Part shown: one piece after another, positions 3,553 through 64,000 of the stretch | Layout of the letters: every line of letters begins with the position of its first letter | How positions within the stretch are numbered: the stretch's first letter is position 1 | Source of the DNA: Pseudomonadales bacterium | Lineage (GTDB): Bacteria > Pseudomonadota > Gammaproteobacteria > Pseudomonadales > UBA7239 | DNA: 64,000 nt | Assembly: GCA_041395665.1 (NCBI GenBank) | Contig: JAWLAB010000003.1 | Span: 215,285-279,284, forward strand | Direction: 5' to 3' | The notes under the pieces: model-generated | The model's input: the letters and a program-made list of their open reading frames with translations, nothing else | Databases searched by the model: none | What the model was told of the DNA's origin: nothing | Translations under genes and position numbers: made by a program

Positions 3553-5261
3553 ATTTGCTTTTGCTCTGCTTGCAAAATATCAGAGAAAGCATTGGTTGGT
3601 ATTGGTTTTGAAAAGTGGTAGCCCTGATAGATGTCACACTTTCTTCCTGCAAGAAACTGCAACACTTCATGGTTCTCTACACCTTCAGCAATCACTTTCA
3701 TATGCAAGTTATGTGACAAACCAATAATGGCCGATGCAATCACGGCATCATCTTCGTTTTTGGTAAGCTCACGAACAAATGACTGATCAATTTTCAAATA
3801 ATCGATCGGGAATTTTTTCAGGTAGCTCAACGAAGAATAGCCAGTGCCGAAATCATCAATAGATAAGTTGACGCCCATTTCTTTCAATGTTTGCAGCACT
3901 TGTTGGCTGAGTTGCGTATCTTCCATCAGCGTGCCTTCGGTCAACTCCAAGTCCAGCATATGTGGTGGCAAATCTGTATCTGCAAGGACATTCCCAACAG
4001 AAAAAACTAAGTCGGCGCCGCGAAACTGATAAGAGGAAATGTTGACGGAAATTACATGACGTTCGGTGATAAGCCCTTGTTTTAACCAATCCATCCATTG
4101 CTGCGTTGCTGTTCTTAGCACCCATTCACCAACGGGTAAAACTAAGCCAGTCTCTTCAAGTAGATCAATGAACTGCGCTGGAGGCACAAGACCTAGCGTA
4201 GGGTGTCGCCAGCGGATTAACGCTTCTGCACCACGCAATAAACCAGATTCAACATGCACCTGTGGTTGATAAAACAATTCAAACTCACCACGCGCCAAGG
4301 CTTGATACAAGTTCTGTTCTAGCTGATTGCGCGATTGCGATTCGTCGCCCATTTCTGCAATATAAAATTGATATTTATTGCGCCCTAAGCTTTTAGCGCG
4401 ACTCATTGCCGCATCCGCTTTGCGTATCAGCATTTCACCACGGCCATCACAATCGCGCGAAAAAACAATACCAATACTGGAGCCGACATACATTTCGTGG
4501 CGATTGATATTAAAAGGCTTGAGGAGTGATTCAATAATGTTTTGCGCAACAGTGGCCGCTTCGTTACGCGACTCTAAGTCTTCCATCAAAATAACAAATT
4601 CATCACTACCGTATCGAGCAATTAAATCTTGTCTTCGTGTGGCTTTGCGTATGCGATCTGCCGCACTTTGTAACAACATATCACCCGTAGTGTGACCAAA
4701 AGTGTCGTTAATAATTTTGAAGCGGTCTAAATCAATAAACAAAACAGCCAGCAACGAATTATCACGCCGCGCGCGTACCAAGCCTTGTTCCAAGCGATCA
4801 TTCAGTAAAGAACGATTGGCAAGATTGGTGAGTGAATCGTGATAAGCAATATGTGATAAAGCTTGCTCGGCTTGATTGCGTGCTTTACGCGTTTCCACAT
4901 CGCGCAACTCGCGTTCAATCGCAGGAATCAAACGCGCCAATTTGTCTTTCATGATGAAATCTTGCGCGCCGCTGCGCATAGCACTAACAGCCACTGATTC
5001 ATCAATGGTCCCTGACACAATGATGACAGGAATATCCATGCCCGATTTTTTGACAATTTTCAGCGCGTCTGCCGAATCAAACCCAGGCAGCGTGTGATCA
5101 GCAATGACCAATTGCCAGTGGTTTTGCTCCAACGCTTTTGTTAACGCTTCACGTGTATCGACACGCTCAAACTGCAACTCGTAGCCGTTTTTATTCAGCT
5201 CACGCACCAACAACAGTGCGTCGTCTTCGCTGTCATCAATAATTAGAACATTCAGATACAT
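3537..5261 (-). CDS. Response-regulator receiver + degenerate GGDEF + EAL protein (c-di-GMP phosphodiesterase-type)
   Basis: N-terminal REC domain (LIIDDSEDD...VIADHTLPG). GGDEF domain with RRQD (RxxD) followed by YGSDEF instead of GGDEF. EAL domain with the GAEALIRW, DDFGTGYSSL and EGVE motifs. Confidence 0.9.
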
Positions 5262-9383: not shown

Positions 9384-10465
9384 GGCGCGGGCTCTTGTTG
9401 CTGTTGCTCTACTGCAGCAGGCGGTGGCAATGAGCGATAGTTGTCGTTTTTACGCAGCTGATATTCGTTTATAGCATTTTGGTGCTGAACCAGCGTCTCT
9501 GAAAAAGTATGCGTGCCATCGCCTTTAGCCACAAAAAATAGCGTATTGCCTTCTGCAGGATGCAGTGCTGCATTGATAGCCGCACGCCCCGGCATGGCGA
9601 TTGGTGTAGGCGGCAAACCGTCAATCACATAAGTATTCCATGGTGAAGGTTCTTTCAAATGACTTCGTTTTAGGTTGCCTGTAAATCCAGCCCCCAAACC
9701 ATAAATGACTGTTGGATCCGTCTGCAGTTTCATGCCCTTCTGCATCCGGCGCACAAAAACCCCAGAAATTTGTTTTCTTTCATGAGCAGCGCCTGTTTCT
9801 TTTTCAATAATACTTGCCATAGTAAGCGCTTCATACGAGGTTTTATAGGGAAGGTTCTGCGCTCTATTTTTCCATTCTTCTTCTAAGATAGATTTCATTC
9901 TGCCGTGAGCAACTCGCAGCACATCTGACACTTTCATACCACTGACAAAGCTGTATGTGTCTGGAAAAAAGTAGCCTTCCGCTTTATTCCTTTCAAAGCC
10001 TAATAGCTTCTTATAATCTTCATCTTTAAGATGAGTGACATCATCAATTAATTTTTTCTGGCTCAGCAGCAACTTCATTGCATCTGAAAATGTACTTCCT
10101 TCAATCAAAGTAACTTGGTACTGAATCACTTTACCAGATGCTAGTTTCTGTAATAGGGCTTCGCCTGTTATTCCCTGTTGCAACTCATATTCCCCTGCAC
10201 GGATATGTGTTTGATTTTTCCAGCGCGCGTAAACCAATAACCATTTAGGATGACGAACGATACCTTTATCAGCTAAACGCATCACTACACTGGTCAGCGT
10301 CTCCCCCTGACCGACCAAAACTGTATGTGTGTCGTTATCCAACTTGATCGGCCTGTATAGCGTACGGTTAACCTCCCAAACACCGTATAAAACCGAGATA
10401 AGAAAAAGAAATACCAAAGTTTGTACAACATAACGCGCAGTAAACTTAGCCATAAAGCCTCGCAT
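9380..10465 (-). CDS. mltG: Endolytic murein transglycosylase (YceG/MltG)
   Basis: N-terminal TM helix and a YceG-like domain containing LTMASIIEKETG. An alternative start is Met5 (10453). Confidence 0.88.
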   Translation of the reverse strand: MRGFMAKFTARYVVQTLVFLFLISVLYGVWEVNRTLYRPIKLDNDTHTVLVGQGETLTSVVMRLADKGIVRHPKWLLVYARWKNQTHIRAGEYELQQGITGEALLQKLASGKVIQYQVTLIEGSTFSDAMKLLLSQKKLIDDVTHLKDEDYKKLLGFERNKAEGYFFPDTYSFVSGMKVSDVLRVAHGRMKSILEEEWKNRAQNLPYKTSYEALTMASIIEKETGAAHERKQISGVFVRRMQKGMKLQTDPTVIYGLGAGFTGNLKRSHLKEPSPWNTYVIDGLPPTPIAMPGRAAINAALHPAEGNTLFFVAKGDGTHTFSETLVQHQNAINEYQLRKNDNYRSLPPPAAVEQQQQEPAP

Positions 10466-11267
10466 AGCCGAGCATAGAAAGTTTTTGCCAAATTTTTGTT
10501 ACCGTCTCTGTATGCAGTGCAATTTTGCTCACACCGATAGATTGCACAGGCACAATGCCAATCACGCTATTACAGAGAAACATTCCCTCTGCATTCAAGC
10601 AGTCTTGTAATGTCAGGCGTGTTTCTTCGACTGCCATGCCGATATCTGCGGCGAGTTGCTGCAAAACAAAAGCACGCATCACGCCTGCAACACCACAGGA
10701 TTTCAAGTTTGGTGTCAGCAATGTGTTTTTTTGCAAAACAAATACATTGCTACTGATGCCCTCAATCACACTACCTTGTGTATCCAACATCAAGCCGTCG
10801 TCATAAAGTGATTTGTTCAGTTCACCTGTCGTCAATACTTGTTCTAAACGACTGAGATGCTTGATGCCTGCCAGTGCAGGATTGTGTGCTACACGCTGAC
10901 GACACAAATGCAAACGCAGGCCTTGTGTAATGCGCTGCTGCGAGAATTGTGGTGCCGGATAAGCCTTAATACTGACGGAGTAATTGGTGTTTGCTGGTGA
11001 ATAGCCACGCTGACCGCCGCTGCGTGCCACAATAATTTTTACGACCGCTAGCGATTGCTGTTTCGCACATTGTTGAAAACTATTTTCGATAGTGGCGATG
11101 TCGCAATCCATGCGTAAACGCTTTGCCGCATCAATCAATCGCGCACGATGGAAAGCCCATAACGGCGCTTTACCATCGACAACCAAGACAGTTTCAAAAA
11201 AACCATCACCGTAAGAAACAGCGCGTTCCCAATTTTGAGGAATAGCCACTGATTGCACGGCTACCAC
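10446..11267 (-). CDS. pabC: Aminodeoxychorismate lyase (class IV aminotransferase fold)
   Basis: GTG start. Reads YGDGFFETVLV..., with fold-type IV PLP features. It occupies the canonical position between fabF and mltG. Confidence 0.75.
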   Translation of the reverse strand: MVAVQSVAIPQNWERAVSYGDGFFETVLVVDGKAPLWAFHRARLIDAAKRLRMDCDIATIENSFQQCAKQQSLAVVKIIVARSGGQRGYSPANTNYSVSIKAYPAPQFSQQRITQGLRLHLCRQRVAHNPALAGIKHLSRLEQVLTTGELNKSLYDDGLMLDTQGSVIEGISSNVFVLQKNTLLTPNLKSCGVAGVMRAFVLQQLAADIGMAVEETRLTLQDCLNAEGMFLCNSVIGIVPVQSIGVSKIALHTETVTKIWQKLSMLGYARLYG

Positions 11268-11277
11268 CAGCTACGCG

Positions 11278-12516
11278 TCAGATTTTTCCGAACAGCAGCG
11301 TGCCATTAGTGCCACCAAAACCAAACGAGTTCGACATCGCGTAGCGAATTGTCATGGTTTGTGGTTGATGCGGCACAAAATTCAAATCACAGCCGTCGTC
11401 TGGATTATCTAAATTGATGGTTGGCGGCGCGACTTGATCGCGAATGGCCAACACAGAAAAAATTGCTTCAATCGCGCCGGCTGCACCCAACAAATGTCCG
11501 GTCATGGATTTAGTTGAACTCACGGCAACTTGCGCAGCGGCATTACCCATCACACTTTTGACTGCGCGACATTCCGCAACATCACCCGCTGGTGTGGAAG
11601 TGCCATGCGCGTTGATGTATTGCAAATCTGCTGCATTAATTTTTGCATCGCGCAATGCATTCATCATGGAACGCGCTGCACCGTTGCCATCTTCTGGTGG
11701 CGAAGTCATGTGATAAGCGTCATCGCTCATACCAAAACCGCACAACTCTGCATAAATTTTTGCACCGCGTTGTTTGGCGCTTTCGTATTCTTCCAACACC
11801 ACAATGCCTGCGCCGTCGGCGAGTACAAAACCGTCGCGGTCTTTATCCCAAGGGCGACTCGCTGCGGCTGGATTGTCATTGCGTGTCGACAACGCACGCG
11901 CTGCGGCAAAGCCACCCAAACCCACGGGTGTGCATGCCATTTCTGCACCACCGGCGACCATCATGTCTGCTTCGCCGAGTGCAATCATGCGTGCAGCCAA
12001 ACCGATGTTATGCGTGCCTGTTGTGCAAGCGGTAGTGACGGCGATATTTGGGCCGCGCAAACCGTATTTGATCGCTAAGTTACCAGAGACCATATTGATG
12101 ATGCTGCCCGGCACAAAAAACGGCGAAATACGACGGGGGCCTTTGGTGTTGATCAAATCGCGGCTTTCTTCAATCGCACCAATACCACCAATACCAGAAC
12201 CAATCGCAGAACCGCAGCGATCCGCATTTTCTTCTGTCACCACAAAACCGCTGTCTTCAACTGCTTGAATGCTGGCGACTAAGCCATACTGAATAAATGC
12301 GTCCATTTTGCGCGCATCTTTCAAGGGCATGTACTGCTCAATATCCAAACCGCGAATATTGCCGGCAAATTGCGTGGTGAACGGCGAAGCATCGAAGTGT
12401 TCAATCGGCGCAATACCACTTTTCGATGCCAACACGCCTTCCCATGTACTAGCGACGGTGTTGCCCAACGGCGTAACCATGCCCAGACCTGTAACTACCA
12501 CTCTTCTGCCTAACAC
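11278..12516 (-). CDS. fabF: 3-oxoacyl-ACP synthase II
   Basis: GTG start with GAGGAA upstream. Contains [34 protein letters not shown] and [12 protein letters not shown]. Confidence 0.95.
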
Positions 12517-51282: not shown

Positions 51283-51391
51283 AACAGGAAACCCTTCTAC
51301 ATTGGCAGCGCGCTATTATGCCAGAGCTTTTTAAGCGCAAAACCAGCCATCTGCTATGATGATTCATCCATTTCTTCCAGCAGCTTTACAC

Positions 51392-52222
51392 ATGGCGCGC
51401 ATTCTTATCTTTGATTCTGGCGTTGGCGGGCTATCCATTCTCGGTGCGCTAAAAAGAAATCCTGATATCAGCCAAACCGCGCATGAGTGGCTGTTCTGCT
51501 CCGATAACGCTTTTTTTCCCTACGGCCTTAAGAAAGAAGATGAATTGATTGCGCGAGTGACGCGCGTGCTGCAAGCCATCCACCAGCAATATCAACCCGA
51601 CATCATCGTGCTTGCCTGCAACACCGCTAGCACCGTCGCACTGGAAGCCGTGCGCCAAATACTGCCTGTACCGATAGTCGGCGTTGTGCCTGCCATCAAA
51701 CCTGCGGCACAACTCACGCAATCTGGCTGTATTGGCTTGCTGGCTACACCCGGCACCATCGCGCGTGCTTACACAGAACAGCTGATTAAAGACTTTGCCA
51801 GCAACTGCGATGTAGTACGCGTAGGTAGCAATGAACTGGTGGGGCAGGCGGAACAACAACTGCGCAGTGGGTTTGTCGATCAAACGAAGATTCACGAAGC
51901 ATTGATGCCACTGCGCAACGCAATTGCCAAACATCAATTAGATACGGTTGTGCTGGCCTGCACGCACTTTCCGTTGATTATCACGCACCTACAAGAGCAA
52001 CTGCCTGAAATCAAACATTGGGTAGACTCCAGTGAAGCAGTAGCGCGACGCGTAGCTTGGTTATTGCAACAACCAACACAAAAAAATACAGCTCACTCAT
52101 CTGGGCCAGAAGCAGGTGGCACTGCACTATTTACGCGTATGGATGAATCCATCGAGCAACTAAAACGCACTTTAGGCTATTTTGGTTTAGGAAATATTTG
52201 TTTATTAACGGTGGATAGCTAG
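51392..52222 (+). CDS. murI: Glutamate racemase
   Basis: The internal Met gives MARILIFDSGVGGLSI. Contains VLACNTAS and VLACTHFP, the two catalytic Cys motifs. Confidence 0.92.
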   Translation: MARILIFDSGVGGLSILGALKRNPDISQTAHEWLFCSDNAFFPYGLKKEDELIARVTRVLQAIHQQYQPDIIVLACNTASTVALEAVRQILPVPIVGVVPAIKPAAQLTQSGCIGLLATPGTIARAYTEQLIKDFASNCDVVRVGSNELVGQAEQQLRSGFVDQTKIHEALMPLRNAIAKHQLDTVVLACTHFPLIITHLQEQLPEIKHWVDSSEAVARRVAWLLQQPTQKNTAHSSGPEAGGTALFTRMDESIEQLKRTLGYFGLGNICLLTVDS

Positions 52223-52998
52223 GGCTGAGACTGATCGCCTTCTTCTGCATCAGAATTGCGAGACAGGCCAAATCCATTGTCCCCAAAAACCCCCAAATTC
52301 AATAAATTACCGGAGCTAGAACCATACGGCCAAGCTCGCCACGCGGGGTCGTCAAGAATATCGGATTGCATGCGTATTACGGCAGCCGAAGTGATGGGAA
52401 TGGTATAAGGGTCGTTGGTGCTTGCCTCACAATCCAATAAATTGTGCCCAATGTTGTAAGTTCTAATTGCCTCGCGTATGGCAACGCGAATCACAGGAAA
52501 GCTTAAGTGATAACAAAAAGTAATTTGCAACTTCAGCAAATTGGCGTCTTGGATATTCACACGCGACGCACCCGGCTTGGCATCGCGATACATTAGGTTG
52601 TCATTAGGGATTTTTTTCCATCCAGTGACATCATCGTCTTCACCAAATTCCAAAAACGCCAATCGCGTTGGATTGATGCGGTCAAATTTTACATAACCAG
52701 AACCTACCAAACCATCAACAACACCCACTGCATCCGTCACATTAAAGGAGTTGTTATCGGTGGTATAAAACGGCGCCATACCAATGACAAAGCCTCGGCG
52801 CACTGATGTCAGTGTCGCTCCATTTACAGCGGCAATTCGCGCAGCATTAAATGCCGCATAATTGAGCGTCGTTTTTGCTTGGTAAATCAGAGCAAATTGC
52901 AAACAACCAAATACCAGCATAAAGACTACCGGCGCAATAATAATAAACTCCGTCGCGCTTTGGCCTCGTTGCCGAGTATAAGATAGCGCTCTTTTCAT
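52219..52998 (-). CDS. TadE-like pseudopilin-type protein (last gene of the Tad operon)
   Basis: The N-terminus RQRG/QSATEFIIIAPVVFMLVFGCLQFAL matches the TadE/TadF-type leader and hydrophobic segment. Confidence 0.7.
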   Translation of the reverse strand: MKRALSYTRQRGQSATEFIIIAPVVFMLVFGCLQFALIYQAKTTLNYAAFNAARIAAVNGATLTSVRRGFVIGMAPFYTTDNNSFNVTDAVGVVDGLVGSGYVKFDRINPTRLAFLEFGEDDDVTGWKKIPNDNLMYRDAKPGASRVNIQDANLLKLQITFCYHLSFPVIRVAIREAIRTYNIGHNLLDCEASTNDPYTIPITSAAVIRMQSDILDDPAWRAWPYGSSSGNLLNLGVFGDNGFGLSRNSDAEEGDQSQP

Positions 52999-53729
52999 TA
53001 TTGAGCAGCCTGTTCACTAGGCGATTTTAATAAAGGCGGATGCCAAATATCTTTTCCTTCTGCATCGGTTTTCTTTTTATCAGAAGGTTGTGGTGATTGT
53101 GTTGCTACAGCCTCTTGCTGCTCTATTTGCTGCGACTCGAATGCTTCAGGTGATGTTTGGTCCGGCATCAGCACTGGCGGCAAATCTGAGATTTTTTGTG
53201 GTTTCCCATCCAAAACAATCATTTCAACTTTGCTTACATCAACAGGCTTTTGCTCTTCTTTTTTATTGGCCGAGAGCTTTTCTAAAGCTTGATTCTGCTG
53301 TTCCATCAACTGCAATAATTGCTGGTTATATGACTTTGCAATTTGAAAAACAGGATCGCTCGGTGGCAAATAACGCAATGCCTCTGAAAAAGTTTGGGCT
53401 GATGCACGCAACTGATTAAAGCCTGCGTTATACCAAGCTTTTGCAAAGTGGCTGTCTCTCAGTACAGCTTCGCGATACGCCTTTACCGCTTCGTCTATTT
53501 GATCCATGCGCGCATGTGTATTACCCATGCGAAACCAAACCTCTGCCTCCGACGGTGTCGCCTGCGATAGTTTTTTGTAGTACTGCAACGCAGTTGGGTA
53601 TTGGCCATCTTGGTAGGCTTTATCTGCCTTGGTACGCCACTCCGCCAATGTTGATAAGCTCGGAGAGGACATACATCCGGCAAGCAGCACAACCGCCAGC
53701 AACATCACAATACGCCGCACCATAGACAT
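52998..53729 (-). CDS. TPR-repeat lipoprotein (TadD-like)
   Basis: Lipobox LLAGC and TPR units (AYQDGQYPTALQYYKKL..., AEVWFRMGNTHARMDQIDEAVKAY...). Its position in the Tad operon supports the call. Confidence 0.6.
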   Translation of the reverse strand: MSMVRRIVMLLAVVLLAGCMSSPSLSTLAEWRTKADKAYQDGQYPTALQYYKKLSQATPSEAEVWFRMGNTHARMDQIDEAVKAYREAVLRDSHFAKAWYNAGFNQLRASAQTFSEALRYLPPSDPVFQIAKSYNQQLLQLMEQQNQALEKLSANKKEEQKPVDVSKVEMIVLDGKPQKISDLPPVLMPDQTSPEAFESQQIEQQEAVATQSPQPSDKKKTDAEGKDIWHPPLLKSPSEQAAQ

Positions 53730-54083
53730 TTACTCTTTAGGCAGAAATTTTAATTGGGCGCCAACAGCAAGCCCTAGTTTTTCAGCATCACCAGCGCGCA
53801 ACTCCAAAGCTGATTTGGCTGCAATACACAGCAACACACGCCACGGTGCAACATGGTGGCCAATCTTCAGCACAAACCCTTGTTTATTGATAAACACAAC
53901 ATCAATCGAATAACGCATAAAAAAAGTATGAATTGAATTACAGTGCGTAATCCATAAAGACTCACGAGGCATCAGTTCCACACGCCCTAGTAAACCGCGC
54001 ATTCGCTCAAACACATTGGTGGTCTGTTGGATTCTAGAATCAGGCAGCACATGGTGATTGAGCTGCAACTCACCCAATAACAT
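53730..54083 (-). CDS. DUF192 domain protein
   Basis: Reads RMRGLLGR...LWITHCNSIHTFFMRYSIDVVFINKQGFV...ALELRAGDAEKLG, which matches the DUF192 (COG1430) pattern. Confidence 0.7.
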   Translation of the reverse strand: MLLGELQLNHHVLPDSRIQQTTNVFERMRGLLGRVELMPRESLWITHCNSIHTFFMRYSIDVVFINKQGFVLKIGHHVAPWRVLLCIAAKSALELRAGDAEKLGLAVGAQLKFLPKE

Positions 54084-55030
54084 TATAAAAATCCCTGATT
54101 CATAAATTTCACTACGATGGGGAATGCCAGAATCATGAATGTCACAGGAAAGATAAAAGCCATCAAAGGGAAAATCAGTTTAACTGGCGCTTCCATAGCC
54201 AATTTTTCAGCACGCTGGAATCGTTCATTTCGCCGTTGATCCGATTGCACTTTTAGCACTTTACTCATGCTAGATCCCAATTTTTCTGCTTGGATAACCG
54301 CACGCACAAAAGCACTGACCGCTTTTATATCAAGACGCTCAGCCATACGCGTCAACGCATCTGCCCTGCTCGCACCCGCGCGAATATCACGCATGACCGT
54401 CAGAAACTCATGTTTTAGCGCACCACTCGGCCCTTTTTCTACCGCTTGATTCATTGCACCAGTGAGGTTTAAGCCTGCTTCCACACACATCGAAATAAAC
54501 TCAAGATACATCGGCAACGCACGCATCACTTCTTTTTCTCGTTTGACTTTGGTTTCGCTCAACCAGATTACGGGCAAGAAAAATCCCATCAAAATAGAAC
54601 CAATAAAAATCAACAGAGAAAGCTTTTTCAGCATCAAAGCTGCCAGCAATACTAAAATTGGAAAAAGAAAAGCACTGAATACACGAATCGCGAAAAACTC
54701 CTCCGCATTGACATAGTAGGCAACACCAGTTTGCTGCAAACGCTTTTCTAGTCTATCTAAATATGGGATGGGCAAGTTCGTGCAGAGATAATACGCAATG
54801 ATACGAATCAAAGGCCAGACTAACTTTAATGCGGGCGGTAGCTCATCTTTATATTCACGACTTTCTTCAGGTATACGCGAGCCTAGTATTTTAATGATCA
54901 GCACGATTAGCGCGACAGAAATACCGATACCAATAGCCGATGTATACATTAATACCGGCGCACTGAGGTTTAAGAAAATAAACCACAAGTCAGATAACTC
55001 TTTTTGTATCGATAACCACATAGAGTTCAC
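54083..55030 (-). CDS. tadC: Tad pilus inner-membrane platform protein (T2SS-F family)
   Basis: TM segments flank a cytoplasmic T2SSF-type domain (LPMYLEFISMCVEAGLNLTGAM...). It is the second of two paralogues after the ATPase. Confidence 0.8.
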   Translation of the reverse strand: MNSMWLSIQKELSDLWFIFLNLSAPVLMYTSAIGIGISVALIVLIIKILGSRIPEESREYKDELPPALKLVWPLIRIIAYYLCTNLPIPYLDRLEKRLQQTGVAYYVNAEEFFAIRVFSAFLFPILVLLAALMLKKLSLLIFIGSILMGFFLPVIWLSETKVKREKEVMRALPMYLEFISMCVEAGLNLTGAMNQAVEKGPSGALKHEFLTVMRDIRAGASRADALTRMAERLDIKAVSAFVRAVIQAEKLGSSMSKVLKVQSDQRRNERFQRAEKLAMEAPVKLIFPLMAFIFPVTFMILAFPIVVKFMNQGFL

Positions 55031-55884
55031 ACATCAATCGTCGTAATTTTTCGAATAATTGAAAAGCCAATACCCAGCATGACGACAATGACACCAAGTA
55101 CTACATACCCCATTGTGGTGCTGTACAACTTGCTCATTGCTTCTGGCTCAATCACATTCAACGCACACGCCAGCAAGATAGGTAGCCCCGTCATCACATA
55201 ACCTTGCATCTTGCCTTGTGAAGTTAAGCTAACAATTTTGCCTTCCATCGCTGCCTTTTGACGCAAGGTATCTGCTAGTTTTTCCATCACTTCCACAAGA
55301 TTACCGCCCACTTCGCGTGAAATACGAATAGCAGACAAAGCCACTCTAAAATCTTGCGATGGAATGCGCTTTTCCATATCAACCAGAGCTTGATCGAAAT
55401 TAACACCCAACTTAATTTTTCGCACCAATAAAGAAAACTCTTGCGCCAAGGGTGCTGGCTGCTCCGTTGCCAATGTTTCAATTGCACCCATCAAACTAGT
55501 TCCTGCACCGAGACTACTCGCTAATGACATGAATGCATCCGGTAGCTGTTCATCAAACTTTTTCATGCGTGATTTTTTGATGCTGCCGTAGAACATTTTT
55601 GGCACAACTGCCATCACAACAACAGCGACTATCACACTGAGAAAGTCGCGCTTGATGATCAACACCAGCGTCGGCACCACAATTAATGCTGTGGTGTAGT
55701 AGCGCACCAACATGTCAGGATCCATAAACATAAACATGTCCGACAAGTTCATGTTTGCTTCTTCAGAAAGCTGAGACTCGAAACGCGCTTTTATTTTTGC
55801 ACCCACTGTCATTGCCAAGAAAAACAAAATAGACAGACTGACAAACAGTAGAATAAAGATTACTAAGATACCTGTTCCAGACAT
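55027..55884 (-). CDS. tadB: Tad pilus inner-membrane platform protein (T2SS-F family)
   Basis: T2SSF-type domain (LPDAFMSLASSLGAGTSLMGAIETLA...) lying directly after the ATPase. Confidence 0.8.
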   Translation of the reverse strand: MSGTGILVIFILLFVSLSILFFLAMTVGAKIKARFESQLSEEANMNLSDMFMFMDPDMLVRYYTTALIVVPTLVLIIKRDFLSVIVAVVVMAVVPKMFYGSIKKSRMKKFDEQLPDAFMSLASSLGAGTSLMGAIETLATEQPAPLAQEFSLLVRKIKLGVNFDQALVDMEKRIPSQDFRVALSAIRISREVGGNLVEVMEKLADTLRQKAAMEGKIVSLTSQGKMQGYVMTGLPILLACALNVIEPEAMSKLYSTTMGYVVLGVIVVMLGIGFSIIRKITTIDV

Positions 55885-55893
55885 CGTTATTTC

Positions 55894-57561
55894 TCAGCCA
55901 AATAAACTCATATCGACTTCTAAGCCGCGTTTACGCATATCTTCGTAGAACTCTGGCACTCGACCTGTTGCTACAAATTGGCCACGAACACGCCCTTCTG
56001 CATCGTACCCTTCTTGCTGGAAACGAAAAATTTCTTGCATTTGGATAATGCCCGTTTCCATACCCGTAATTTCATTGATAGCCGTTACACGACGGCTGCC
56101 GTCAGAAAAACGCGACTGCTGCACAATCATATTGACTGCTGAAGAAATTTGCTCACGAATGGCTTGCACGGGCAAATCCATGCCAGCCATCATCACCATG
56201 ACCTCTAAACGCGAAATCATGTCGCGCGGTGTGTTAGCGTGACCTGTTGTCAACGAACCTTCGTGCCCCGTGTTCATCGCTTGCAACATATCTAACGCTT
56301 CACCGCCGCGACACTCGCCGACAACGATTCTGTCCGGTCGCATACGCAAACAGTTTTTCACCAAATCACGAATCGTAATCGCACCTCGCCCTTCCATATT
56401 TGGCGGTCTTGCTTCCAATGAAACTAAGTGTGGCTGCGCCAACTGTAATTCAGCAGCATCTTCAATGGTAATAACGCGCTCGCCATGAGGAATAAAGTTT
56501 GACAACACATTCAATAAAGTAGTTTTACCAGAGCCTGTACCGCCTGAAATCACGATATTGCGTTTCTGTTCTACGCAAATCTTCAAAAACTTCATCATAT
56601 TTTCATTGACAGCTTTGAAGCCAACCAAATCTGATGCTTGTAATTTTTTCTTAGAAAACTTTCGGATAGTGATACAAGGACCTTTTAACGCAAGCGGTGG
56701 AATAATGGCATTCACACGCGAACCATCTTTTAAGCGCGCATCCACCATGGGTGAACTTTCATCTATCCTTCTTCCTAAAGGTGAAACAATCCGCTCAATG
56801 GTGGAAAGCACCGCTTTGTGGCTACTGTAGTTCACATCAGATTTTTGCAAACGCCCACTGCGTTCGATGTAAATATCATTAAAACTGTTGACCATAATTT
56901 CAGTCACAGACTCATCTGCCAACAGTGCTTCCATAGGTCCTAAGCCCACGGCTTCGTTCAATACATCTTCCGTCAAACGCGCACGCGTAATAAAAGGCGG
57001 CAATGCGCCTTCTAACCCGTCCAATACTTCATCAATCAATGCTTTGATGCGATTGCGCAAATCTTCATCTGACATCGTGCCAACATCAATACGTTTCAAG
57101 TCCATGCGCTTGAGCAATTCCTCATGCACATGGCTTTGCCACAAAATCAGTTGCTCCTGCTGCGCACTACCAACGGAGCCAAACGCTGGCGCACTTGCCG
57201 CACCGCCACTCTCTGCAGCAGCTACAGCATCTGACTCCCCGTCTTCGTTGGCGGCAGCTAATGCGTTGCCCACATCCAACTGTTTGCAGCGCAAGTTGTA
57301 CGCACCAATCGTAATCACATCCGATGTTGTCAGTGGCCCGTAGGCATCCACACGTTTTCCGTTAACAAAAGTGCCGGCATCAACCTGGTCGCTAATATGC
57401 AGTCCGTCACCACGCTCTTCAATTTGCGCATGCAAACCAGCGACTTTCCAGCCACGCAACTGTACTAAATTGTCTCTGGATTTCCCTATGCCGCAGCGAT
57501 TTCCCATGCAGCGCACGAGATTATCACTTTCGCCTTTTGTGCTTACTGTAATTTCAAACAT
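55894..57561 (-). CDS. CpaF/TadA secretion ATPase with N-terminal FHA domain
   Basis: The C-terminal two thirds have Walker A GGTGSGKTTLLN, VITIEDAAEL and GHEGSLTTGHAN. The first roughly 95 aa (RCGIGKSRDNLVQL...HAQIEERGDGLHISD...GTFVNGKRV) look like an FHA domain. Confidence 0.88.
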   Translation of the reverse strand: MFEITVSTKGESDNLVRCMGNRCGIGKSRDNLVQLRGWKVAGLHAQIEERGDGLHISDQVDAGTFVNGKRVDAYGPLTTSDVITIGAYNLRCKQLDVGNALAAANEDGESDAVAAAESGGAASAPAFGSVGSAQQEQLILWQSHVHEELLKRMDLKRIDVGTMSDEDLRNRIKALIDEVLDGLEGALPPFITRARLTEDVLNEAVGLGPMEALLADESVTEIMVNSFNDIYIERSGRLQKSDVNYSSHKAVLSTIERIVSPLGRRIDESSPMVDARLKDGSRVNAIIPPLALKGPCITIRKFSKKKLQASDLVGFKAVNENMMKFLKICVEQKRNIVISGGTGSGKTTLLNVLSNFIPHGERVITIEDAAELQLAQPHLVSLEARPPNMEGRGAITIRDLVKNCLRMRPDRIVVGECRGGEALDMLQAMNTGHEGSLTTGHANTPRDMISRLEVMVMMAGMDLPVQAIREQISSAVNMIVQQSRFSDGSRRVTAINEITGMETGIIQMQEIFRFQQEGYDAEGRVRGQFVATGRVPEFYEDMRKRGLEVDMSLFG

Positions 57562-57587: not shown

Positions 57588-58934
57588 TTATTCAAACAGA
57601 CCTTTTTCAAAAGAGCTGTTGAAACGATTGATCATGTCATCACGACGCGCCGCTTCTTCACGATTAATGTCATGGTTTACATCAATAATGGTTGGCGTAA
57701 CAAAAATAACCAATTCTGTTTTTTTCGTTTGAAAAAACTTGGAGCGAAATAGTTTTCCAAGGATTGGCAGATCACCCAGCCACTTCACTTTATCCAAGCT
57801 TCTGCTGATTTCTGAATTCGTTAAACCAGAAATAACCAAAGTTTCACCGTCTTTCATGTTGACATCAGTTGTTGTGCCGCGTGTTTTAAATGCTGGATTT
57901 CCATCCACTGCATTCGCTGGATCCAACACACTCACTTCCGTAGAAATTTTTGCCGAAATATTGCCGCGCGTATCCGCTTGAGGTGCGACACTCAACTTAA
58001 TACCAAAGTCTTTGTAATCAACGGATGAGCCGTTGATATTGCTAGTCACGACTGGCACCTGCCCGCCCGCTAAGAACTCCGCTTGCCCGCCGCTGCGCGC
58101 ACTCAAACGCGGTGAAGCAAGTAGGAACGCATCACCCGTGCTGACCAAATAGCTAATTCGCGAAGTAATTTCTGTCGCTATACCAAAGAAAGCCTGCCCT
58201 TCTTCGTTTCTAAACGGCAATGCAGTTAAATCACCTGTAAAATCTTTCGATGGTGCTGGTCTATAAAAAGAATTTGTTTTTACACCCTTATAAAATGCAG
58301 CTGTTGGCCCAGCGATATCTGTTTGCCAATTAATCCCCAACTGCTCTAAGTCATTGGTATTGAATTCGGTGATTTGTACATTCATGTAAACCATTTTTTC
58401 TGAAAACGCATTAGAAACACGCGTTAAGTTGATGACACTAGGGTACAAAGCAACTACACGCTCAACCAATGTTTTATCACGCTCGTAAATATCGCCTTCA
58501 ATCACCGGTCTGCCAGAAACAGACTTCACGCTAATGCCTTCAACATTGCGCAGCAGTGCACTAATTTCAGCGACAGCGCGTGTTGTGCTACCAGGCAAAA
58601 CATAAACAGTCGTGTCGTGTTGCCAACCCGCTTTGCCCCAGAGATGGATATTGGTCATCCCTTCCTCGTCTGCGACGATAACTAATTCACCCGTAGTCAA
58701 TAAGCGCGTGCTGATTACTGAACCGCTCCCTACAACAACACGCTCTACATCACCCACTTTCATGACATAGGTTTCACCTTTATACAAAGACAGCAAAACT
58801 TCTTTGGGTTGAAGCTCTGCCGCTTGCACAGAATGCATCAGCAGAAATGCCATCAATATGGCAAAACATTTCAGCCACTGTTTTTGAAAGTTAAATAACT
58901 TATTCATGTTTTTTTTGATATTCATATTAGTCAT
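57588..58934 (-). CDS. Tad secretin (CpaC/RcpA family)
   Basis: Signal peptide (CFAILMAFLLMHSVQA) and the secretin C-terminus ...LVISGL...VKWLGDLPILGKLFRSK...TELVIFVTPTII. The start is set at Met18 of ORF 57588..58985 to avoid overlapping the upstream stop, and is approximate. Confidence 0.85.
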   Translation of the reverse strand: MTNMNIKKNMNKLFNFQKQWLKCFAILMAFLLMHSVQAAELQPKEVLLSLYKGETYVMKVGDVERVVVGSGSVISTRLLTTGELVIVADEEGMTNIHLWGKAGWQHDTTVYVLPGSTTRAVAEISALLRNVEGISVKSVSGRPVIEGDIYERDKTLVERVVALYPSVINLTRVSNAFSEKMVYMNVQITEFNTNDLEQLGINWQTDIAGPTAAFYKGVKTNSFYRPAPSKDFTGDLTALPFRNEEGQAFFGIATEITSRISYLVSTGDAFLLASPRLSARSGGQAEFLAGGQVPVVTSNINGSSVDYKDFGIKLSVAPQADTRGNISAKISTEVSVLDPANAVDGNPAFKTRGTTTDVNMKDGETLVISGLTNSEISRSLDKVKWLGDLPILGKLFRSKFFQTKKTELVIFVTPTIIDVNHDINREEAARRDDMINRFNSSFEKGLFE

Positions 58935-58956
58935 TCCAAAACTATGCATTACCGCC

Positions 58957-60936
58957 TCACTTGCCTTGCGGCAATGCCTGTGCATCTTTTGATGCCGATG
59001 AAATAGAAGTTTTATCCAGTTTTAGTACGCCGTTTTCTTTGTTACCACCACTCATACTCTCGTAGCTACGACCACTAATACCTCCCTCTGAATCCGCGGA
59101 ATCAATATTGGGAATGTTGCTATCTACCGCTAATAACGGTGCAGCATCCGGTGTCCCTGCGCGCACAGAGACATCCAATACTCTGCCGTCATTTGCTTTC
59201 ACAGAACCGTCAGCACTCACCGTGGCGACGACATTGCCTTTATCGTCATATACCTTGTCGCCAATCACTTTGCCGATTACTTTTCCATCACTGCCGACAA
59301 CTTCGTTGGCAACAATATTTCCTTTTGCGTCAACCAAAGCATCACCTACTGACTGCCCAATCACATTGCCGTTGACATCTGTCACCGTGCCATCTGCGTT
59401 TACTGTGCCGACTACATTGCCCATTGCGTCAATGACTTTTCCATCCACGATGCGCCCTAAAGTTTTGCCATCTTTTCCAATCGCAACTTTAGATTGCTGC
59501 ACACCATCTGACACTTTGCCGACAATTTTTCCATTCAAATCGACCACATTGCCGTTGGCATCAACACGCGCAATCAATTTGCCGTCGGCGTCATACACTT
59601 TGTCACCAACTACTTTACCGATAGGTTTTCCTTTGGCATCAACAGCCACCTTACCAACCGGCGCACCAATCACATTGCCTTTATCGTCAACAACTTGTCC
59701 TTTGTCATTCACTTTACCGATAACATTGCCGTCTTTATCGTAAACAACGCCGTTGACTACATTGCCAATCACATTGCCTTTGGCATCTACCGCAACAGAT
59801 TCGCTGACATGCCCCAGCATACGACCATCGTTTGACACCACTTTGCCATCAACAACACGACCAATTTGATTGCCATTTGCGTCGTACACTTTATCGCCAA
59901 CTACTTGACCAACCGGTCTACCATCAGATCCCAAAGCTATCTGTGCTTTCACTTTTTCACCGATGACTTTGCCTTTGGCATCGACAACCTTGCCATCAGC
60001 ATTCACTTTTCCAATGACATTACCCTGTGCGTCATACACAACACCGCCAACCACTTTTCCTATTGCATTGCCATTGACATCACGCACTACTTCTGTAGAC
60101 GCACGCGCTAGTTCTGCATTGCGTGCTTTTCTCATCAGCGACATTAACTGTGATGGGCGCACTGCATCAAAACCACTTGAACCGCCATCGTTGCGATTAC
60201 GCAGTGCTGCGATAATTCGCCCTGCTTCTTCAGCTACTTTTAACATCGCCACTTGTTCCGGAAACAAATCGACGGTAACGGAGGAATAATCTTTATCCGT
60301 CATCACCGCGCCTGATCGCTGTGATTGCATGGATTTTGAATCTTGACTGCCTGTTGCAATCACCACCACATTTTCCAACACAGGAAAAACTACTTCTTCT
60401 GCACCGGCATTTTCTAAACCGGGTGTTGGTTCTGCCCCCGCCTGACCTGCTGGCATACCAACAAGAATGTCAATGTGATTACCAGGACGAAGCATGCCGT
60501 CCATCGAATTAATACGATCCACTTTAATCGTGATTGCTCTACGACCCGCTGCAATCGAATCCGAAAAATCTCCCATATTGATACCGGATAGAGAATTTAA
60601 CGGAATGGGTTTTCCGCGTGCGGCAGGGTACTGCAGCCGACGACCTTCAACTTTTTTGTAATATTGCGCAGTAATAACATCGGGGCCCACATACTTTTCG
60701 GGTATTTTTCTCGCTGCCACGGTATCCAGCGCAATAATTTCACCCGGCATCAAATCGCGCACCGGCACAACAACGGCCACCTCAACTTCTGGTGGTTTTT
60801 GGTATTGCTTTGCCAATGCAGCCTCTCTATTTTTGAGATACAACACCGCAAGCCCAGCTGCGATTAACCCCAAAAATACAGACACGACCAACATAGACAG
60901 TGTGCTCTGCTTTTTAAACCCTTCGACCAGTGACAT
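58957..60936 (-). CDS. CpaB/RcpC-family Tad assembly protein with a ~400-aa C-terminal repeat extension
   Basis: Residues 1-260 have a TM anchor plus a SAF/RcpC-like region (VVVPVRDLMPGEIIALDTV...; RAITIKVD...PGNHIDILV). Residues 283-591 hold about 19 tandem units of about 16 aa (e.g. VVYDAQGNVIGKVNADG, KVVDAKGKVIGEKV, VAVDAKGNVIGNVVNG). The tail is Ser/Gly-rich. Confidence 0.85.
   Translation of the reverse strand: MSLVEGFKKQSTLSMLVVSVFLGLIAAGLAVLYLKNREAALAKQYQKPPEVEVAVVVPVRDLMPGEIIALDTVAARKIPEKYVGPDVITAQYYKKVEGRRLQYPAARGKPIPLNSLSGINMGDFSDSIAAGRRAITIKVDRINSMDGMLRPGNHIDILVGMPAGQAGAEPTPGLENAGAEEVVFPVLENVVVIATGSQDSKSMQSQRSGAVMTDKDYSSVTVDLFPEQVAMLKVAEEAGRIIAALRNRNDGGSSGFDAVRPSQLMSLMRKARNAELARASTEVVRDVNGNAIGKVVGGVVYDAQGNVIGKVNADGKVVDAKGKVIGEKVKAQIALGSDGRPVGQVVGDKVYDANGNQIGRVVDGKVVSNDGRMLGHVSESVAVDAKGNVIGNVVNGVVYDKDGNVIGKVNDKGQVVDDKGNVIGAPVGKVAVDAKGKPIGKVVGDKVYDADGKLIARVDANGNVVDLNGKIVGKVSDGVQQSKVAIGKDGKTLGRIVDGKVIDAMGNVVGTVNADGTVTDVNGNVIGQSVGDALVDAKGNIVANEVVGSDGKVIGKVIGDKVYDDKGNVVATVSADGSVKANDGRVLDVSVRAGTPDAAPLLAVDSNIPNIDSADSEGGISGRSYESMSGGNKENGVLKLDKTSISSASKDAQALPQGK
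59164..60090 (-). repeat. Coding tandem repeat array (about 19 units of about 48 nt) inside the CpaB-like gene
   Basis: The consensus peptide unit is k-V-v-D-a-k-G-n-v-I-G-k-V-v-d-G. The units are degenerate at the DNA level, so this is an old array, not a recent duplication. Confidence 0.85.
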
Positions 60937-60966: not shown

Positions 60967-61809
<843 letters not shown>

Positions 61810-62502
61810 TCAAAATGCCGATTTCACTTCATTGAACAGGACGACAGAAGCACCCGCCTGCTCATGAATAGCGATATTGATATCGACACCATCTTTTCTA
61901 TAAGACAGCGCTTGCGAACCTACCGATGGATTCACCGGTGTTAAAAAAGAACTCCAACCTGCGTTTTCATAATGCATACGATAGAAATCCATGTTATCGA
62001 CAATGCTTTTTTCATTGAGTAACACCACCGTACGAGCGCGTTTTCCCGGCATGGAATCGCTAATATCCGATACCACTTCCGAGTTACCCACCATTGGAAT
62101 ACCTCCACCGAGCTCTACTTTTGTCGCACGATTTCCTGGCAACTCAGTAATGACTAAGCGCCCAACGGACTTTTCTGCATCCAGAGGATCCGCTTTAACT
62201 TGCACAGAAAAGAAATATTTTTCATCACCGCGACTGATTTGTTTTAGCTCACCCAAGTCATTTTCGACAAAACCTTTTTCATCAATTTCACCTTCTGCCC
62301 AATGCTTGCGGTAGTAATTGAGAATTTTTTCGTACTGACAATCACAGTGAATATTTTCGATATACATACGCACACCGTTGTACACCATGTCATCAGCTGT
62401 CCACTCTGTTTCAATAAAATCAGGACGATCAAACGATGGCCATGCCTGCGCCCATGTTGGCAAGAGCAAGAAAAAGTAAAAAGCCAGCCAGCGCCTATTC
62501 AT
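61810..62502 (-). CDS. Secreted hypothetical protein within the Tad operon
   Basis: The ATG at 62502 overlaps the upstream stop (ATGAATAG). Signal peptide MNRRWLAFYFFLLLPTWAQA. I recognise no domain. Two segments look internally similar (ILNYYRKHWAEGE / NMDFYRMHYENAGW). Confidence 0.6.
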   Translation of the reverse strand: MNRRWLAFYFFLLLPTWAQAWPSFDRPDFIETEWTADDMVYNGVRMYIENIHCDCQYEKILNYYRKHWAEGEIDEKGFVENDLGELKQISRGDEKYFFSVQVKADPLDAEKSVGRLVITELPGNRATKVELGGGIPMVGNSEVVSDISDSMPGKRARTVVLLNEKSIVDNMDFYRMHYENAGWSSFLTPVNPSVGSQALSYRKDGVDINIAIHEQAGASVVLFNEVKSAF

Positions 62503-63436
62503 TGAACGAACACACGCCATTTTTATCGCAAATATCGGCTTCATCTACACCGATATTGAATGGGTCTGTGTTGTAGCCACCCATATCCCAGCCGTCTGAG
62601 CTACCTGGAGCGGGCTGCTTTAACTTTGGCTCAGACAGTGCTCCGGCTAATACACGACGCATAGTGTTAAGCACATCGTTATTGAGAAATGAACTCGGCA
62701 CCAAACCGCCCGTTTGTGTTTTGAACATCGCAGGGCCTTGCGCGCTCCATGAATCCACTAACAAAGCGGAATCGGCATACATGGCAAGATGTACTGTTTC
62801 AATCGTCTCTAAATCTGATTTTTTTTGGTTGTCAGGCACAACATAAGAAACATTATTCAATGGAATAGCGACAATATGATTATCACTTTCAAAGTAGCCG
62901 TCTAAATTCGGTGAAAAATTACTACGCTTACTTCCAAGCCAACTAAACAGTTTATAAACAGGCTGCAAGGTTTTAGTAAAGAAACGCAACACTTCATAAC
63001 CAATTCCTGGCGTTTCTTTTAATTTATCCACATTGACTTGCACACCGCTAACATCCACCAATGGCTTGCCTTGATAATCGAACAAAAAAGGATTTAACGA
63101 GGAATCATTCAACACCGCGCCTGATTGCGAAAGAATGGGCGCATTCGGCGCTTCCAACATACGCAATTTCGCTTCGTTGGCAATGACGCTGGATGTTTTT
63201 GCAGGGAATGTACTGCCACCGATAATCTCTACGCCGGCGGGAATTTTATTGGGCTCATGCCAAACGCTGCGCTCCCATGCCACATAACGCGCCATTTCTA
63301 CTGAGGTTTGGCTCAACTCACCGTACTTGGTGATCACAGGCAAAATTAAAAATAGCGGCACTAAAACAGCCGCCGCAACGATAGCGAACTCCGTCATCGC
63401 TTGGCCGCGTTGCCATTGGCGGCTCGCGCGGCTCAT
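62495..63436 (-). CDS. TadE-like pseudopilin-type protein
   Basis: The N-terminus QWQRG/QAMTEFAIVAAAVLVPLFLILPV is a TadE-type leader and hydrophobic segment. 313 aa. Confidence 0.7.
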   Translation of the reverse strand: MSRASRQWQRGQAMTEFAIVAAAVLVPLFLILPVITKYGELSQTSVEMARYVAWERSVWHEPNKIPAGVEIIGGSTFPAKTSSVIANEAKLRMLEAPNAPILSQSGAVLNDSSLNPFLFDYQGKPLVDVSGVQVNVDKLKETPGIGYEVLRFFTKTLQPVYKLFSWLGSKRSNFSPNLDGYFESDNHIVAIPLNNVSYVVPDNQKKSDLETIETVHLAMYADSALLVDSWSAQGPAMFKTQTGGLVPSSFLNNDVLNTMRRVLAGALSEPKLKQPAPGSSDGWDMGGYNTDPFNIGVDEADICDKNGVCSFNE

Positions 63437-64000
63437 AAACCAAAAATTCCTTTGATGGCATTTTCGATCATGTCTTTGGCGTAACCATCCATGTCCGTCA
63501 TTTCGTCTATGACTGTTTTCTTGATATTTTCAACTTGCCCCGGCAAATCATTTGCACCTTGTTGTATGCCGGTAAAAGCCCATGCCAACTTAGGCTCTTG
63601 CACAAACATGGCAGAGATCAACACCATGTTATCCACTTGCGCTAAACGCGCGCCCCAATACGGGCTAAATGCATTGGGCTCTTCATCTAAACCGTCTGTG
63701 CGTTTGTAATAAATTTCGCCGCTGGAAATCGCTTGCAAGCCTGGCTTTTGCCCAAAAGGTCCTAAAGAAACAGCATCATCTGAGGATTGCCCCGCTGCCA
63801 TATTTTCAAGCTGTAAATTACCTGTTGGGCTAGCCGTTCCCATGTTGTCTGAAGTGCGCGTATTTTTTTCTGGCATATAAACCCACACCACATACGGCGG
63901 AGGAATGGTGCCAGGCCAATCAAATTGCCAACTCTGCCCTGAAGCATTGAGGTAATCAGGATCAATCGTATGAAACGGCGCTAAATCACCATAGCTTTGC
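63433..64000 (-). CDS. Hypothetical protein, C-terminal 189 aa (5' end outside window); first visible gene of the Tad-type operon
   Basis: The frame of ORF 63433..63891 stays open upstream to the window edge (...QSYGDLAPFHTIDPDYLNASGQSWQFDWPGTIPPPYVVWVYMPEK...). It overlaps the downstream TadE-like gene by 4 nt. It is possibly TadG-like, but no diagnostic motif is visible. Confidence 0.5.
   Translation of the reverse strand, partial: QSYGDLAPFHTIDPDYLNASGQSWQFDWPGTIPPPYVVWVYMPEKNTRTSDNMGTASPTGNLQLENMAAGQSSDDAVSLGPFGQKPGLQAISSGEIYYKRTDGLDEEPNAFSPYWGARLAQVDNMVLISAMFVQEPKLAWAFTGIQQGANDLPGQVENIKKTVIDEMTDMDGYAKDMIENAIKGIFGL

Follow-up and report, generated by a model that had tools for sequence, protein, structure and literature searches.

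The closest described counterparts of the protein reported here are the alignment-complex proteins of the Tad (tight adherence; Flp) pilus machines of Pseudomonas aeruginosa and Caulobacter crescentus. Its locus lies in a stretch of 64,000 nucleotides (nt) from a Pseudomonadales bacterium (contig JAWLAB010000003.1, positions 215,285 to 279,284; hereafter the window), and the gene of interest is a long form of cpaB/rcpC. RcpC of P. aeruginosa (structure 9gzr) and CpaB of C. crescentus both consist of a membrane helix, a SAF domain (D1), an RcpC domain (D2), a linker and a terminal beta-hairpin, and both are encoded directly upstream of the secretin. The N-terminal helix of RcpC is its inner-membrane anchor, its L3 linker is required for oligomerisation and ring formation, and Tad function depends on its terminal hairpin, which binds the N-domain of the secretin RcpA (PMC12307814). 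In Caulobacter, the terminal hairpin packs on CpaI, which forms a bridge to the secretin near the cell wall and the peptidoglycan layer (PMC13170226). The way in which the Tad machine connects its inner-membrane half to its outer-membrane half is an active question, with an RcpC structure from 2025 and the first in situ maps from 2025-2026, and these papers indicate that species differ in how the link is made.

The long CpaB of the window shares the parts listed above and the position directly upstream of the secretin. However, RcpC is a protein of 303 amino acids (aa), whereas the window protein has 659, with about 310 aa of hairpin repeats and a 26-aa linker placed ahead of its terminal hairpin. 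The loci differ as well, as the locus in the window is without TadZ/CpaE and its ATPase carries a forkhead-associated (FHA) domain. The gene stands beside genes for a secretin, TadA, TadB and TadC and thus within a Tad locus. It codes for the alignment-complex protein CpaB/RcpC of a Tad (Flp) locus of a distinct gammaproteobacterial type. Our preferred reading of the hairpin array, which we hold with about even confidence, is that it is a built-in structural module. A literature search, which did not cover all journals, found no paper on long CpaB/RcpC proteins, on the Pfam families of the array in a pilus context, or on this type of locus. The original prediction, which had been made from the sequence of the window, regarded the array as an addition to the Tad machine that it did not recognise as described, and this still holds for the hairpin-array CpaB and its locus type in the literature found. 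The repeat family and the CpaB family are both already catalogued; the domain combination is visible by Pfam, and the source databases name these proteins CpaB.

Position of the array within the CpaB protein

The gene and the parts of its product are as follows:

58957..60936, (-): long-form cpaB/rcpC, 659 aa, ATG start; alignment-complex subunit of the Tad/Flp pilus machine
60835..60900, (-): N-terminal membrane anchor, hydrophobic helix at about aa 13-34 (hydrophobic run LSMLVVSVFLGLIAAGLAVLYL)
60598..60777, (-): D1, SAF domain, aa 54-113 (PF08666, 23.4 bits, cutoff 21)
60199..60570, (-): D2, RcpC domain, aa 123-246 (PF16976, 73.2 bits, cutoff 28.8)
60100..60156, (-): helix after D2, aa 261-279 (AlphaFold), at the position of the RcpC L3 linker
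59155..60090, (-): array of 19 beta-hairpin units, aa 283-594 (unit parse, Pfam, AlphaFold)
59077..59154, (-): low-complexity linker, aa 595-620, not conserved in the alignment of long CpaBs
59002..59076, (-): conserved terminal beta-hairpin, aa 621-645 (SYESMSGGNKENGVLKLDK), corresponds to the hairpin with which RcpC/CpaB binds the secretin or a bridge protein

In a profile search, the window protein reached 119.7 bits against TIGR03177 (CpaB, NCBIfam; cutoff 71), which places it in the CpaB family, and a 100% identical protein (P0001) bears the NCBI name CpaB. An AlphaFold helix at aa 11-44 covers the hydrophobic anchor, whose membrane orientation is taken from homology to RcpC. Foldseek matched D1 to proteins with a SAF fold (type III antifreeze protein, the C-terminal domain of NeuB, and FlgA), and the comparison of the AlphaFold model with chains A and B of RcpC (9gzr) gave E-values of 9e-12 and 6e-11, a probability of 1.0 and a template-modelling (TM) score, normalised to the target, of 0.5, which agrees with the D1-D2 fold of CpaB/RcpC. 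The link to RcpC was taken from this fold comparison because sequence searches of the PDB gave marginal matches only: phmmer with the whole protein found ComZ (E 0.29) and RcpC (E 0.31), while an array-deleted relative returned no matches among the PDB sequences. With TIGR03177, PF16976 and the SAF domain all above their cutoffs, the expectation that residues 1-260 form an ordinary CpaB/RcpC was confirmed. The helix at aa 261-279 is probably equivalent to the RcpC L3 linker, by position only.

The array had originally been described as a C-terminal extension that ends in a Ser/Gly-rich tail. This view has to be revised, since a conserved terminal hairpin follows the array and its motif is shared with short CpaBs. 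In an alignment of 64 long CpaBs, a C-terminal segment of the form x-I-x-F-I-x-G-G-x-x-K-x-G-[IV]-x-P-V was conserved, with G630, G631 and G636 invariant, and 44 of 50 loci had the motif x-I-x-F-I-x-G-G...G-V-x-x-V at a distance of 22 aa to the C-terminus, with a distance of 23 aa in three more; in the window protein, about 14 further residues follow the motif. Short CpaBs end in the same motif (DHIEFIVGGQSKGGVAAVERLPL in P0167, 329 aa, versus LLVDYLVGGNSKDGVAVVNKVPIK in the long P0134, 486 aa). When the short P0167 was compared by BLASTP to the long proteins P0100, P0134 and P0124, the first high-scoring segment pair lay over the N-terminal domains and a second one joined the C-termini (IEFIVGGQSKGGVAAVERLPL versus VDYLVGGNSKDGVAVVNKIPI, E 3e-4 to 8e-4). 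A hidden Markov model (HMM) of the short-form tail likewise matched best in the last 45 aa of the protein for 114 of 116 long forms, with weak scores (median 3.6 bits) at a consistent location. This model had been rebuilt around the motif, because a first version, for which the 60 C-terminal residues of short CpaBs had been used, caught the end of D2 and was dropped. After in silico deletion of the array, TIGR03177 extended into the tail and covered profile positions 3-255 and 4-257 of 262. Judged by these sequence comparisons, the array is an insertion between the linker helix and the terminal hairpin and not a C-terminal extension. The description as a tail thus stands only in part: the region is Ser/Gly-rich, but it is not merely a tail, as it holds the conserved terminal beta-hairpin at about aa 621-645. 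In the AlphaFold model, the predicted local distance difference test score (pLDDT) fell below 50 over aa 598-628, and the strands of the terminal hairpin (aa 624-629 and 639-644) were placed at low confidence. Because the terminal hairpin binds the secretin or CpaI in the characterised systems, the array would stand between the ring-forming module and the docking element, and by the same analogy the hairpin of the window protein is expected to dock on the N-terminal domain of the neighbouring secretin.

Fold, families and spread of the hairpin repeats

The 19 units of the array are 13-20 aa long (mostly 16-17) and follow the pattern V-x-D-x-x-G-x-x-I-G-x-V. When columns were anchored on the turn glycine, this residue was present in all 19 units, Asp at -3 and Val at -5 in 14 each, Ile, Val or Leu at +3 in all 19, and Gly at +4 in 15. 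The strict motif [VILA]x[DN]xxGxx[ILVM][GA] occurred 14 times in the array region, compared to a mean of 0.29 and a maximum of three in 2000 composition-preserving shuffles of the same region. The regular array of about 19 copies that had been proposed was therefore borne out, and its earlier coordinates (aa 283-591, equal to nt 59164-60090) are arithmetically correct. Fixed-shift self-identity (best 0.257, at a shift of 180; shuffle maximum 0.237) was barely above the composition-matched control because the units differ in length, and the motif count and the Pfam E-values were used in its place. Conservation is confined to Gly, Asp and aliphatic positions, and the remaining ones are variable and hydrophilic. 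The net charge of the array is 0, and its only aromatic residues are five Tyr among 316 residues, with no Trp or Phe.

A super-repeat of about 98 aa, equal to six hairpins, was apparent from an ungapped window scan, in which aa 280-329 and 378-427 were identical at 32 of 50 positions; a BLASTP self-comparison for recent duplications had given nothing usable. The array has grown through the duplication of multi-hairpin blocks. In the DNA, Tandem Repeats Finder detected no tandem repeat inside the array and the longest exact repeat was 18 nt: the repeats are old and have diverged at the DNA level. The identical protein is recorded on 14 contigs, and relatives that are 84-90% identical have 658 aa. 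A collapse or expansion of repeats during assembly, which had been named as a possible source of error, is unlikely because of the missing DNA tandem repeats and the 14 contigs, and the open reading frame (ORF) was confirmed as first described.

Three catalogued families matched the array above their thresholds, namely PF21785 (Bflower_2, five-fold beta-flower; 113.6 bits, gathering score 38, E 5e-33), PF21784 (four-fold beta-flower; 74.5 bits, gathering score 25) and PF12396 (DUF3659; 62.1 bits, cutoff 24.8, in six stretches). Each third of the array (about 100 aa) alone exceeded all three thresholds; these thirds had been searched for Pfam domain boundaries, and as the matches covered partial profiles only, no boundaries were drawn. 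The beta-flower families were made in 2023 from AlphaFold models, so that their fold is a predicted one, and are described as small shallow barrels of short hairpins with [DNEQ]xxG at the hairpin tip; Pfam places them in the Tubby clan, CL0395 (Durairaj et al. 2023, PMC10584680). The array carries this tip motif, as seen in the Asp and Gly columns given above, and on sequence grounds it is a member of the beta-flower/DUF3659 repeat families. The likeness to DUF3659 that had been suggested in the original prediction was thereby confirmed, and the repeat is of a catalogued kind. In contrast to the beta-flowers described so far, which are single small domains of 8-12 strands and often have a central helix or a lipoprotein signal, the window protein has 19 tandem hairpins within a protein of a pilus machine and no helix in the predicted array.

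AlphaFold modelled the array as beta-hairpins throughout, with a pLDDT of 77-87 in the full-length model and of 87 (predicted TM score 0.66) for the array alone, in agreement with the hairpins that had been expected from the sequence. This suggests that the array has a defined overall shape and does not resemble beads on a string. DSSP assigned no helix anywhere in aa 282-592 of the model, and thus no enclosed hydrophobic helix. The 98-aa, six-hairpin super-repeat is compatible with the closure of a beta-flower and is no proof of it; in the model, the array may form closed flowers, an open sheet or, as originally proposed, a solenoid or fibre-like domain. A Foldseek search of the array against the PDB found no global match (TM at most 0.2, root-mean-square deviation of about 17-31 Å). 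The best matches were the YD shells of Rhs proteins and teneurins (7q97, E 6e-12) and also fascin, which reflects local hairpin similarity, while the best named matches among viral models were MORN repeats and adenovirus fibre shafts (TM at most 0.17). The YD/RHS repeats of Rhs effectors, teneurins and Tc toxins resemble the array in their hairpin motif V-Y-D-x-x-G-N, and whole-protein scores for PF05593 (40.3 bits) and TIGR01643 (42.4 bits) were above the cutoffs. Membership in this family was nevertheless rejected, since no single stretch was significant, the matches of the 7q97 type had TM scores of 0.09-0.11 and deviations above 22 Å, and none of the matches indicated an Rhs core or a toxin domain.

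Long CpaBs are widespread among marine bacteria and bacteria of the Pseudomonas type. A full-library search with the N-terminal 281 aa returned 4262 cluster representatives at E at most 1e-3. Among the best 150 of these, 58 were at least 380 aa long, of which 44 matched DUF3659, 14 Bflower_2 and 13 Bflower; the remaining short forms had a median length of 333 aa. In a first homologue search, the best 120 proteins all paired an RcpC domain with hairpin repeats, at lengths of 484-1096 aa. One metagenomic protein of 1096 aa (P0016) looked like a fusion of CpaB and secretin and was rejected as such, because the secretin signal peptide lies mid-protein; a frameshift or gene-call artefact is the most likely cause. 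A scan of one genome per species gave 61 loci, about 50 of them with the long form. Carriers include many Pseudomonas species, Phytopseudomonas dryadis, Aquipseudomonas guryensis, Gilvimarinus, Cellvibrionaceae, Halieaceae, Methylophaga, Motiliproteus, Litorivivens and other lineages. It had been stated beforehand that long repeat-bearing CpaBs which are common and already functionally described would speak against the novelty of the protein. They are common, with about 50 species genomes, but no functional description was found in the literature. In a Myxococcota metagenome-assembled genome (L047, match at 10001-11620), an ORF of 1585 aa matches CpaB, and the genes downstream of it are in the order given below; in the remaining loci from myxobacteria (L057-L064) CpaB is of the short form.

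The number of hairpin motifs ranged from 4 to 30 in the genome loci (median 15) and reached 33 in one metagenome homologue; P0123 is a minimal relative with about six hairpins. Array length thus varies widely among orthologues, while the flanking parts are fixed. In P0029, aa 542-591 and 620-669 are identical at 50 of 50 positions, and in P0033, blocks that start at aa 332 and 627 are identical at 42 of 50. Because these blocks are perfectly or near-perfectly duplicated, arrays are either still expanding in some lineages or the assemblies are unreliable there. Hairpin number showed no relation to secretin length across 47 loci (Spearman rho -0.20, p = 0.18).

Candidate roles of the array

The protein reads, in order, as membrane anchor, SAF domain, RcpC domain, linker helix, 19-hairpin block and terminal beta-hairpin. 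By analogy to the characterised systems, D1 and D2 would form a ring above the inner membrane and the terminal hairpin would reach the secretin N-domain or a bridging protein; because ring and hairpin are placed so in those systems, the array would lie in the periplasm between ring and secretin. From the RcpC/CpaB work, about a dozen copies of it would surround the passage taken by the pilus. There it would most likely act as an additional tier of the machine, in the form of a wall, cage or bridge, and connect the half in the inner membrane with that in the outer membrane. It would then do in cis what CpaI does in trans in Caulobacter. CpaI, too, is located in the periplasm close to the cell wall, where it stands between the secretin and the hairpin of CpaB, and this likeness is a proposed functional analogy only: CpaI is a separate small beta-sandwich protein, whereas the array is a module within CpaB that precedes the hairpin. 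As its structural positions are conserved, its exposed ones variable and its net charge 0, the sequence of the array looks more like that of a scaffold than like a specific binding site, and a role as a catalytic or specific ligand-binding domain is less likely.

Several observations weigh against this role as a structural module. The spread of motif counts, from 4 to 30 and up to 33 in the metagenome homologue, fits poorly with a rigid in-line spacer, and a rigid spacer of variable length is hard to accommodate because the width of the periplasm is roughly fixed; the array may instead pack to the side, or act by avidity on a periodic partner. The terminal motif is divergent in the clade of the window protein (SYESMSGGNKENGVLKLDK), for which the tail HMM gave -0.8 bits with a placement at aa 630-645, and the terminal hairpin was modelled by AlphaFold at low confidence. 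Docking onto the secretin of this locus is assumed from homology. A more specific form of the structural reading, in which about 12 arrays form an extra ordered ring or cage tier that replaces bridges of the CpaI type and engages the hairpin-bearing pseudopilin to hold a tip complex before extension, appears rather unlikely to us. If it were true, it would add to the architecture of the machine a new layer that separates the secretin from the CpaB ring, and it would give the beta-flower/DUF3659 repeat a first biological role together with a tractable structural context.

An alternative explanation, which we consider unlikely, is that the array is a peptidoglycan or glycan anchor that fixes the machine at the cell wall, as LysM and AMIN domains do in other type IV machines. 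The location of the Caulobacter bridge CpaI near the peptidoglycan layer (PMC13170226) would fit such an anchor, as would the variable copy number, which suits avidity for a periodic polymer, and the weak matches to the carbohydrate-binding hairpin repeats of C. difficile toxin A (2g7c) in structure and to the LytB SH3 domain in sequence. However, aromatic residues abound in the hairpin repeats known to bind glycans, while the array has five Tyr, neither Trp nor Phe, and no net charge; no curated peptidoglycan-binding family reached its threshold, and all structural matches had TM scores of at most 0.2. The array could also cooperate with the adjacent pseudopilin through contacts between their hairpin domains, so that the tip complex of the pilus is held or primed within the CpaB cage until it extends, which seems to us still less probable. 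The pseudopilin has five hairpins of the DxxGxxIG type found in the CpaB array (at aa 163, 180, 203, 220 and 268) and scores 32 bits against DUF3659 (cutoff 24.8), and the ORF directly upstream of the long cpaB has a prepilin-like motif in 41 of 50 loci (the match in L047 is doubtful) and at least one hairpin motif (1-5) in 41 of 50. Yet these hairpins are few and absent in some loci, and the shared motif could stem from common descent or a local duplication.

Binding of lipid by the array is very unlikely in our view. Beta-flowers belong to the Tubby clan, members of which bind phosphoinositides or act as scramblases, and a screen for proteins associated with lipid droplets turned up a DUF3659 protein of a fungus; but the hydrophobic central helix typical of Tubby and many beta-flowers is absent here, as DSSP found no helix, and the array has no Phe or Trp and as many Lys and Arg as Asp and Glu, unlike the Arg-, Lys- and Phe-tipped petals of the prototype. 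Moreover, a tetratricopeptide repeat (TPR) lipoprotein that could serve as pilotin is already present in the locus. We give hardly any weight to the remaining possibility, that the array is filler which the protein can do without, produced by repeats that expanded unchecked in a tolerant linker, or that it is an artefact of assembly or gene calling. Its highly variable copy number, the recent perfect block duplication in P0029 and the artefactual CpaB-secretin fusion of P0016 would be in line with this, but about 50 species and metagenome clusters in the hundreds have retained the array, its repeats in the window are old and diverged in DNA with conserved structural positions, its fold is confidently modelled, and the identical protein occurs on 14 contigs. 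Were the array dispensable, the finding would reduce to a common, automatically annotated domain combination.

If the array is instead a structural module, the long-CpaB subfamily puts a large repeat module, predicted to be folded, exactly at the junction of the two membrane halves, and offers the beta-flower/DUF3659 repeat a first cellular context. Its role is testable because carriers such as Stutzerimonas nitrititolerans, Pseudomonas anguilliseptica, P. guineae and Gilvimarinus species, among them Gilvimarinus sp. DA14, can be cultured.

The surrounding Tad locus

The genes around the long cpaB are as follows:

63433-64000, (-): 3' part of a TadG-like gene, with the frame open to the window end (relatives 606-690 aa)
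61810..64000, (-): upstream part of the operon, with the 244-aa secreted protein, a TadE-like pseudopilin and the partial TadG-like gene (ORFs, orthologues)
61810-62544, (-): 244-aa signal-peptide protein, conserved in the locus
60967..61809, (-): Flp-type pseudopilin, 280 aa, with prepilin-like N-terminus G/QSSMEY, Gly/Ser linker and five hairpins
57588..58985, (-): RcpA/CpaC-type secretin (PF00263, 136.8 bits; PF13629 at aa 65-121)
52219..57561, (-): rest of the Tad operon, with FHA-TadA ATPase, TadB, TadC, DUF192, TPR lipoprotein and TadE-like pseudopilin (Pfam)
55894-57561, (-): Tad ATPase with N-terminal FHA domain (PF00498, 38.7 bits)
53730-54083, (-): DUF192 gene, conserved in this type of Tad locus
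52998-53729, (-): TPR lipoprotein, TadD-like, with lipobox LLAGC, conserved in the locus type

The gene order was constant in about 50 loci: Flp pilin, TadG-like protein (about 670 aa), TadE-like pseudopilin, secreted protein (about 230 aa), Flp-type pseudopilin (about 340 aa), long CpaB, secretin, FHA-domain ATPase, TadB, TadC, DUF192, TPR lipoprotein and TadE-like protein. Because of this conserved order, the long form is a hallmark of one subtype of Tad locus and not a rarity of this genome. In every related locus cpaB is followed immediately by the secretin gene, and TadZ/CpaE was not found between secretin and ATPase, either here or in the roughly 50 related loci. An ATPase fused to an FHA domain has reportedly been described for the Kil system of Myxococcus. 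The TPR lipoprotein is possibly the TadD pilotin. For the DUF192 gene, the literature search found no paper that pairs this family with Flp.

Upstream of cpaB, perfect 6-nt tandem repeats at 61424-61501 of the window (GAGCCT in 4.8 copies, then ACCGCC and ACCAGA) encode the Gly/Ser linker of the pseudopilin, and this run could shift in length by slippage. For the 244-aa protein, PF27226 (AF_1845) is present in the orthologues from L001 and L003, while our local Pfam scan gave no match. The TadE-like pseudopilin upstream of it has 313 aa and the prepilin motif G/QAMTEF. The flp pilin gene itself would lie beyond the window, because the TadG-like gene runs past the window end; a 92% identical relative (L004) has a 90-aa Flp with the motif G/QGMTEY at nt 5091. 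On the other side, the Tad operon is flanked by a gene on the opposite strand, a putative glutamate racemase (MurI) judged by sequence motif:

51356-52222, (+): putative glutamate racemase (MurI)

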